A stretch of DNA of 64,000 nt from Escherichia coli (GCF_024502345.1 NZ_JALDNN010000001.1); one strand, 5' to 3'; counted from the stretch's first letter, positions 15,355-17,450 are shown. Program-made: numbers and translations. Notes: a model not told the origin generated them from the sequence alone.

Positions 15355-15718
15355 ATGAGCACAATTGAATCCGGGGTATTAACCGATCATACTGATGTCA
15401 TTTGCTCCACCAGCATTGAGCGCATTGTTACCGGACGTAATGCAGCGTTGAGCCTGACAGAAATCCTTATCCATCAACTTAATGATATTTCTGCACTCAC
15501 CGACAGTATTGGCGGGGGCAAAGCGAATGAATGGGGAGTACGGCAATATCGTTACGACTGCTGGCTGATGGAGAAGCCAGAAACGGCAATGAAAGCGATC
15601 ACCCGCAATATTGATCGTGGTATCTGGAAAAACCTGATGAAGAAATCGGGGATGCTGAGCCTGATGGATGCTCAGGCCCGTGATGAGTGGTACAAAAACC
15701 TTGAAGGGGAGGATATTC
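15355..15718 (+). pseudogene. N-terminal part of a 277-aa hypothetical cytoplasmic protein gene interrupted by IS3
   Basis: ATG at 15355 with GGAG RBS; reading frame runs into IS3 at 15719. Confidence 0.65.
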
Positions 15719-15748
15719 TGATCCTACCCACGTAATATGGACACAGAC

Positions 15749-16615
15749 CTAAGCGAGGTTCTGGTTTTCAAATTGTTCCGGACTGAGGCCGCCACACCAA
15801 CTGTGCCGCCGCCACCGATTGTAATCACATTCGATATAATTAAACACCGTTGCCCGCATTATTTCCCGGCTGATAAAGTGTTCTCCATGGATACATTCCA
15901 CTTTCAGCGAATGAAAGAAGCTTTCCACGCAGGCATTATCGTAGCAGCAACCTTTTGCGCTCATACTTCCACGCAGATTATGCCGCTTCAGTTGCGCCTG
16001 ATAATCTGCTGAACAGTACTGGCCTCCACGGTCCGTGTGAACGATAACGTTCCGGGGCCTCTTACGCCGCCACAGCGCCATCTGCAGGGCATCGCAGGCC
16101 AGTTGCGCCGTCATGCGTGGCGACATTGACCAGCCAATAACGGCACGTGACCACAGGTCAATGACCACTGCCAGATACAGCCAGCCTTCATCTGTACGTA
16201 AGTACGTGATGTCTCCTGCCCACTTCTGGTTCGGGCCACTGGCGTAAAAATCCTGCTCCAACAGATTTTCTGACACAGGCAGGCCGTGTGCGCGGTAGCT
16301 GACCGGGCTGAACTTCCGGGAGGCCTTTGCCCTCAGTCCCTGACGGCGCAGGCTTGCCGCCACGGTTTTTACGTTAAAGGGGTAACCCTGAGCACGCAGT
16401 TCATCCGTCAGGCGTGGGGCACCGTAACGCTGTTTTGACCGGGTAAAAGCCGCGAGGACAACGCTGTCGCAGTGTTGGCGGAACTGCTGACGCGTGCTTA
16501 TCCTTGTCCGCCGCTGACACCACGTATACCAGCCGCTGCGGGCCACCCGGAGCACGCGGCACATTGCTTTGATGCTGAACTCAGCCTGATGTTTTTCAAT
16601 AAAGACATACTTCAT
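15749..16615 (-). CDS. insF: IS3 transposase OrfB (InsF)
   Basis: 288 aa, DDE transposase, matches IS3 InsF. Confidence 0.93.
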
Positions 16616-16911
16616 TTCAGGCGCTTCGCGAAGTATGTCGCGGCCTTTTGGAGGATAGCCAGCTCTTCATCCCGTTCTGCCAGCTGGCGTTTGAGACGTG
16701 CAATCTCGGTAGACATCTCCAGTTCACGTTCAGAAGACGTCTGCTGATTTTGCTGTTTACTGCGCCAGTTGTAGAGCTGTGATTCATACAGGCTGAGTTC
16801 ACGGGCTGCGGCAGTAACACCGATGCGTTCAGCAAGCTTCAGGGCTTCACTGCGAAATTCAGGCGAATGCTGTTTACGGGGTTTTTTACTGGTTGATACT
16901 GTTTTTGTCAT
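16612..16911 (-). CDS. insE: IS3 OrfA (InsE)
   Basis: [19 protein letters not shown]..., 99 aa. Confidence 0.93.
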
Positions 16912-16980
16912 GTGAGTCACCTCTGACTGAGAGTTTACTCACTTAGCCGCGTGTCCACTATTGCTGGGTAAGATCAATTC

Positions 16981-17450
16981 CGGCTGTCAGCGAAGCCAAC
17001 ATTCTGAGCACATTTGAGCAACTGCATCAGAGCAAAGGCGAGGTGTTTGAGCGTGGCGTGATTAACGTGTTTAAAGGTCTGAGCTGGGATTTTAAGAGTA
17101 ACAGCCCGTGTAAGTTCGGGAAAAAGATCATCGTGATAGGGCTGGTGAAACATGACCGATGGGGATTTGGGCTTAACTGGGGCTGGCAACGTGATCGTCT
17201 GGCGGATCTTGAACGCATGCTGATACTGCTTGATGGCAAACCCGTTCCCGACAACCGCGCTGACATTACCCGTAGGCTGGGCGATCATATTCATGAGAAC
17301 AGGCACAGTAACCGTTACGAGGATGAGATGCTTGTGATTAAGTATTTTCAGAAGGGAACGGCACACATCGTATTCAAGCGACCTGAGCTGGTCGATAAGC
17401 TGAACGACATCATCGCCCGGCACTATCCGGGAGCCCTGGCTGCGATGTGA
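16981..17450 (+). pseudogene. C-terminal part of the IS3-interrupted 277-aa gene
   Basis: in-frame continuation of 15355..15718 once IS3 + 4-bp duplication is removed (junction ...EDI|PAVSEAN...). Confidence 0.65.

Follow-up and report, generated by a model that had tools for sequence, protein, structure and literature searches.

An IS3-interrupted DUF4942/YdiA gene at the end of an eroded CP4-like island beside ileX in Escherichia coli

A 64,000-nucleotide stretch of Escherichia coli DNA (GCF_024502345.1, NZ_JALDNN010000001.1; hereafter the window) carries, between positions 15355 and 17450, a gene that is split by the insertion sequence (IS) IS3. We establish that it is an inactivated member of the DUF4942/YdiA family and the terminal gene of a heavily eroded CP4-like genomic island at the ileX tRNA gene, and we show the gene's identity, its exact reconstruction, the deletion next to it and its synteny. 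Taken as a whole, the explanation that combines the terminal island position, the decay history and a functional inference is in our judgment highly probable. This is an ordinary feature of a kind already known: a pseudogene made by an IS, from a named family, on a known type of island, in a context that has been published at the level of the family.

The interrupting element occupies positions 15719-16976 on the minus strand. It is an intact IS3 of 1258 bp, with TGATC...GATCA ends, imperfect terminal inverted repeats and the genes orfA (16612-16920) and orfB (15749-16615), which lie in adjacent frames on the minus strand, opposite to the gene they disrupt, and which both match the NCBIfam model transpos_IS3. 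Its full length is 99.9% identical to annotated E. coli IS3 copies. The length, the termini, the imperfect repeats, the two genes and a short target duplication are those of the IS3 family. The duplicated target is ATTC, present at 15715-15718 on the left (junction GGGGAGGATATTC/TGATCCTACCCACG) and at 16977-16980 on the right, and found once in uninterrupted alleles. A sequence-only reading of this DNA had already placed IS3 here with ATTC on both sides, and all of its coordinates and features hold. The target duplication of IS3 is usually described as 3 bp long. In a scan of species-representative genomes, we found no copy with the same IS3 insertion.

Removing IS3 and one ATTC joins the 5′ part of the gene (15355-15718, plus strand; codons 1-121 and the first base of codon 122) to its 3′ part (16981-17450, plus strand; from the rest of codon 122 to the stop codon), yielding an open reading frame (ORF) of 834 nt and 277 codons that is uninterrupted by any stop and reads ...NLEGEDI/PAVSEANIL... 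across the junction. Today, the 5′ ORF reads into IS3, gains the residues LILPT and stops at 15733-15735. In E. coli A23 (L001), whose allele is uninterrupted, the 50 nt over the junction are the same, with a single ATTC, and the 277-aa product aligns with the reconstructed protein at 95% identity and free of gaps. Because of this agreement at both levels, the reconstruction is beyond chance, and the proposal that a single 277-aa gene was split by IS3 and can be rebuilt exactly is confirmed by the stop-free 834-nt frame and the identical junction. The alternative of two separate genes was rejected, as uninterrupted homologues have no stop near codon 121 and read continuously through it. In our reading of the sequence, the ATG at 15355 has a GGAG 8 nt ahead of it, and this spacing favours 15355 as the probable start of a 277-aa product over the start at 15340, which would give 282 aa.

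Before its disruption, the gene was under purifying selection. The ratio of nonsynonymous to synonymous substitution rates (dN/dS) is 0.07-0.08 against two intact alleles; therefore, it was a functional coding gene until IS3 arrived. Among complete E. coli genomes, none carries the window's allele at a nucleotide identity of at least 95%, and the closest allele is 90.7% identical in nucleotides and 95% in amino acids. The allele is a mosaic with respect to that of E. coli A23: the 5′ 364 nt are 96% identical and the 3′ part is 86% identical, and along the reconstructed gene the first ~420 of 834 nt are 97-100% identical and the remainder 75-87%. The mosaic break lies ~56 nt downstream of the IS3 site and consequently records an older recombination, unrelated to the IS3 insertion. 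Frameshifted or truncated chromosomal copies of the gene also occur elsewhere, at 15477-16321 of the E. coli island L057, near codon 170 in L047, L048 and L049, and in L044, L045, L054 and L055. With several broken copies, the family thus decays repeatedly in resident islands, though its intact alleles are under strong purifying selection.

The reconstructed protein is a member of the DUF4942 family, matching the Pfam model (PF13708) at full length with E = 1.1e-66 (residues 83-271; model positions 1-189 of 190). The sequence-only reading could name no family for it, and had itself counted a match to a named family as evidence against its proposal; on this point it is overturned. Full-length homologues occur in 301 complete E. 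coli genomes under the RefSeq name 'DUF4942 domain-containing protein', and a search of a large protein database gives 2,573 relatives at E<=1e-3. At the same threshold, a 50%-identity library contains 2,078 clusters, nearly all of them stand-alone proteins of 260-290 aa. We also fetched relatives at 55 loci from other bacterial genomes, nearly all from Enterobacterales. In the literature that we searched, the family is met only in gene tables; in that of the Shigella SRL island, orf56 (a homologue of L0010) is listed as 'DUF4942' directly after a DUF957 gene (PMC6980539).

Five residues are invariant in a 70-sequence alignment of the family (W91, G147, D197, H250 and N263), and all five are present in the reconstructed protein. 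IS3 parts W91, which belongs to the N-terminal helical part, from G147, D197, H250 and N263, which belong to the C-terminal alpha/beta subdomain encoded by the 3′ part of the gene. As a consequence of this separation, the window copy should be non-functional. An AlphaFold2 model built from the 70-sequence alignment (predicted local distance difference test score, 89.4; predicted template modeling score, 0.81) combines a long N-terminal helix and a helical bundle with a C-terminal alpha-beta3-alpha-alpha-beta3-alpha subdomain that has two small three-stranded sheets. A Foldseek comparison of the full model with the PDB returned no convincing solved structure (best E = 0.28), and PDB sequence searches with the single protein and with the 70-sequence profile returned nothing or noise (Augmin subunit 6, E = 0.14).

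We now turn to the island that carries the gene. In annotated E. coli islands of this type (L057, L058), the backbone starts with a GTPase, a WYL/HTH regulator, a hypothetical gene, a YfjS/YafY lipoprotein and a secreted protein, and continues with (DUF4339), IrmA, DUF905, DUF932, an antirestriction gene, RadC, DUF987, YeeU, CbtA, DUF5983, DUF957, DUF4942 and the tRNA. In the window, the DUF4942 gene is instead preceded by the pair of genes for exported proteins: a YfjS/YafY-family lipoprotein gene (14411-14863, plus strand) and a YfjT-like secreted-protein gene (14860-15267, plus strand) that is truncated at its 3′ end and fused to DUF957 sequence, encoding 135 aa compared with 150 aa in L057. 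The pair is 99.8% identical to E. coli copies up to position 15235, where the homology ends; from 15234 on, the sequence corresponds to the final ~45 nt of DUF957 and to the DUF957-DUF4942 spacer, at 96.7% identity to E. coli A23. Therefore, the adjacency of the DUF4942 gene and the exported pair is a deletion scar, and it is secondary. The junction falls at 15235/15236 (...CACAGA/CCTCCG...) with a 2-bp microhomology (GA), leaving the YfjT-like gene without its last 77 nt on the left and the last ~45 nt of DUF957 on the right. In intact islands, the exported pair and DUF4942 are separated by ~5.4 kb and eleven genes, and the ~5.4-kb deletion took DUF4339, IrmA, DUF905, DUF932, the antirestriction gene, RadC, DUF987, YeeU, CbtA, DUF5983 and most of DUF957. 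The same deletion is the reason why the second exported gene is truncated. The DUF957-DUF4942 spacer contains a 9-bp GC-rich hairpin (GCCAGCCCG...CGGCTGGC region, 15305-15330) that is conserved in E. coli A23 and that folds only moderately better than shuffled sequence (z-score of -2.6); it might serve as an attenuator or a processing site.

The surrounding chromosome is of the E. coli type, and complete E. coli genomes match its patA-aer-yqjI-yqjH segment at up to 99.6% identity. Along it come ebgCAR, ygjH, patA, aer, yqjI and yqjH (9745-10509), followed by ~7 kb of foreign DNA, a tRNA with a CAT anticodon, mug and rpoD. This tRNA (17553-17628, minus strand) has the position of ileX, is annotated as tRNA-Ile in homologous E. 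coli loci and is the island's attachment site (att). At the far border, we read the 47 nt at 10562-10608 (minus strand) as a displaced 3′ half of the ileX tRNA, probably the native one. By BLAST, this region matches the tRNA region of L058 at 82%. An exact-pattern search for a second tRNA 3′ end recovered the intact tRNA alone; the displaced half, with its T-stem differences, was spotted by eye. Relative to one another, the intact tRNA and the displaced half carry paired, compensatory changes in the T-stem (CCCCG...CGGGG against GCTGG...CCAGC). The 3′ half of the intact tRNA may be derived from the island, and the T-stem differences fit this possibility. In 352 E. coli genomes, DUF4942 is contiguous with ileX and mug. 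Between the DUF4942 gene and the tRNA stands an intrinsic-terminator-like hairpin (17510-17552, plus strand) with a 17-bp stem, a 4-nt loop and a T-run (minimum free energy, -37.2 kcal/mol; z-score of -5.0).

The integrase end of the island carries an N-terminal fragment of a P4-type tyrosine integrase (10761-11474, plus strand; 237 codons), identified by a family scan. In E. coli O19:H7 730V1, an integrase at the far end of the ileX island, ~56 kb away from DUF4942/ileX, shares 95% identity with the fragment, and the homology ends near 11465. A 12-mer, TTACCTGACCCA, occurs in five copies that are confined to the two island ends, where 0.15 copies are expected by chance: two tandem copies and one inverted copy at the integrase end (10735-10780), and two tandem copies at the DUF4942 end (17472-17495). 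These are plausibly binding sites of the integrase's arm type, on both att arms. With a tyrosine integrase and a duplicated tRNA 3′ half at both borders, the island has the frame of a CP4-like, tRNA-integrated island; the antirestriction-RadC-DUF987-YeeU-CbtA-DUF5983-DUF957 block that belongs upstream of DUF4942 is absent from the window.

The interior has been reworked as well. A 1195-bp IS5 (13092-14286), with terminal inverted repeats matching at 15 of 16 positions and CTAA on each side, interrupts a fragment of a RepM/RepE-like replication-initiator gene (12663-13106, minus strand). To the left of IS5, the sequence from 10609 to 13091 has no homology to canonical island backbone loci, the tRNA half aside. 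Within it, a 238-aa ORF (11894-12610, minus strand) has no NCBIfam match; it has a hydrophobic N-terminal segment and a charged C-terminus. In our explanation, DUF4942 is the normal last gene of a CP4-like integrative island at the ileX tRNA, pointing outward to the attachment site, and in this genome the island has shrunk from tens of kilobases to ~7 kb through truncation of the integrase, insertion of IS5 and the 5.4-kb deletion. The loss of the antirestriction-RadC-YeeU/CbtA block left DUF4942 beside the YfjS lipoprotein pair.

Relatives of the gene are also common on plasmids. In PLSDB, 4,350 plasmids (~6% of the database) carry a DUF4942 relative, and 4,003 of these (92%) are predicted to be conjugative. 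The homology to the plasmid YdiA type covers residues 13-274 at ~41% identity (E = 3e-52), which makes the window protein a YdiA member by sequence. In a published survey, 'YdiA; DUF4942' is enriched in the leading region of conjugative plasmids, with a median position as the first ORF from the origin of transfer (oriT), and the YdiA/YgfB leading-region family corresponds to families 24 and 76 (Samuel & Burstein 2024, PMC11541004). Two plasmids illustrate the arrangement. On the IncK2/Z plasmid pEC26-2 (L066), the homologue (8956-9804) closes a same-strand run with ParB, PsiB, PsiA and ArdA ahead of mobA/relaxase and is the gene nearest to the oriT side. On an IncL/M plasmid of pOXA-48 size (L067), it lies at 8944-9804 in a run of antirestriction and ssb genes that leads to mobA/relaxase. 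This leading-region place, pointing to mobA/relaxase, agrees with the published median position. A family member also lies beside a prophage integrase. Burkholderia members are found on a conjugative-plasmid-like contig and Ralstonia members on the chromosome, with a DUF932 gene in the same stretch in both genera.

A second line of evidence comes from domain fusions. In rare relatives of 467-468 aa (P0160, P0173 and P0214), DUF4942 is followed by a small C-terminal methyltransferase domain that bears the motifs FPTP, EPSAGxG and NPPF, and the conserved DUF4942 residues are retained. Their catalytic domain has weak sequence similarity to solved amino-methyltransferases, and phage homologues are annotated as DNA methyltransferases.

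On these grounds, we propose that DUF4942 may be an early-entry (leading-region) establishment protein of mobile elements and, in its evolution, the non-catalytic module of orphan amino-methyltransferases, one that probably binds nucleic acid or a methyltransferase or restriction partner. Because its basis is genomic context and domain fusions, we infer this functional part, and we hold it tentatively, at somewhat less than an even chance. A stand-alone DUF4942 would not itself methylate DNA but would help incoming DNA to withstand host restriction. Several observations weigh against this proposal. Equating the terminal gene of an island with the first gene of a leading region would be an analogy, drawn from the outward orientation at the terminus of the element, and neither an oriT nor a relaxase is identifiable at the window's island end. 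The broken chromosomal copies fit a role that is confined to transfer, but they fit dispensability equally well. Neither NCBIfam nor PADLOC has a match for the reconstructed protein, and in the literature on DUF4942, YeeW/DUF957 and ydiA we found no functional study and no DUF4942 experiment.

A bolder extension would make stand-alone DUF4942 proteins 'headless' target-recognition or docking modules of orphan methyltransferases, which conjugative plasmids and, by extension, CP4-like islands would express as the first proteins in a new host and which would blunt restriction there, either by binding incoming DNA or by engaging host methyltransferase or restriction subunits. The outward-facing terminal block of CP4-like islands would then act as a cryptic leading region whose transfer origin is close to the att end, and the window copy would be a dead example of a widespread anti-defence family. 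We regard this extension as unlikely. Also on the side of DNA binding, the C-terminal subdomain might be a degenerate LAGLIDADG-like DNA-binding or nuclease fold, acting as a site-specific binder or nickase at att or oriT; the structural evidence for such a fold is marginal, and we consider it improbable.

The neighbourhood of the gene suggests another role, as an accessory, such as a regulator or an additional antitoxin, to the CbtA/YeeU toxin-antitoxin module. In ~43 of the 55 loci, DUF987-YeeU-CbtA-DUF5983(-DUF957) precedes DUF4942, which thus follows CbtA-DUF5983(-DUF957) by one to two genes on the same strand. However, the members on plasmids, in prophages, in Burkholderia and in Ralstonia have no CbtA or YeeU nearby; in 6 of the 55 loci (L016, L017, L020, L036, L050 and L052) a complete or nearly complete DUF4942 occurs with no detectable toxin-antitoxin genes; and the fusions join DUF4942 to methyltransferase domains, not to toxin-antitoxin parts. 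An obligatory accessory is rejected by the many members that lack these neighbours, and the accessory role in general has little chance of being correct.

Database names raise the question of whether the protein is itself a DNA methyltransferase or the M subunit of a restriction-modification system. Source entries are called 'methyltransferase domain protein' or 'restriction endonuclease subunit M', and the protein matches PHROG 6263, 'DNA methyltransferase', with E = 1e-16. That match, however, covers profile positions 81-287 of 548, a non-catalytic part. Pfam gives DUF4942 alone and no methyltransferase match; the window protein ends where the FPTP/EPSAGxG/NPPF domain begins, and its model has no Rossmann-type sheet. 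The SAM-binding motif I (xPxxGxG), the catalytic motif IV (N/D-P-P-Y/F) and the Rossmann-type domain of N6-adenine or amino DNA methyltransferases are all missing from it. The window protein has no catalytic domain, and names such as 'restriction endonuclease subunit M' are therefore misleading. With the catalytic motifs absent, a true methyltransferase is rejected, and we give the reading very little credence.

Finally, the sequence-only reading suggested a novel, family-less cytoplasmic gene as third cistron in one operon with the exported pair; in its favour, the DUF4942 gene starts 88 nt past the second exported gene's stop, on the same strand. This suggestion is rejected by synteny and the deletion junction at 15235/15236, by the eleven intervening genes of intact islands, by the Pfam match and by family members on plasmids and in beta-proteobacteria with no YfjS-like neighbour, and it retains almost no credence.

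The locus itself is of little consequence, as yet another pseudogene that an IS has made in a decaying genomic island, from a family that annotation pipelines have already named. DUF4942/YdiA is of wider interest: its fold is confidently predicted and has no solved counterpart, and in the ranking of the published survey its gene is typically the first that reaches a recipient during conjugation. The methyltransferase fusions and the conserved W, D, H and N residues offer starting points for studies of plasmid establishment or anti-restriction.

Compared with known systems, the window copy resembles other DUF4942 family members in its full-length match to the Pfam hidden Markov model, in its length (~277-282 aa in the family) and in its place as the last gene beside the tRNA/att, where family members follow CbtA-DUF5983-DUF957; it differs from intact copies in being interrupted by IS3, in having lost its upstream partners and in being a mosaic allele. 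Like the IS3 insertional pseudogenes of E. coli and Shigella, it holds a canonical 1258-bp IS3 with a short target duplication in a host ORF that is otherwise intact; in contrast to the usual cases its repeat is the 4-bp ATTC, and the uninterrupted allele fixes the original sequence either way. Phage and mobile-element methyltransferases (P0160; AHZ95053 of phiPSA1; PHROG 6263) share with it a helical N-terminus, the DUF4942 domain and the residues W, G, D-L-x-R, H and N, but they run on into an NPPF amino-methyltransferase domain of ~190 aa, whereas the window protein and most of its relatives end before it. With the plasmid YdiA/YgfB genes it shares transcription toward the end of the element or oriT and a family setting in one run with DUF905, DUF932, antirestriction and ssb-type genes; unlike them, it is chromosomal, borne on an island, ~40% identical and inactivated.
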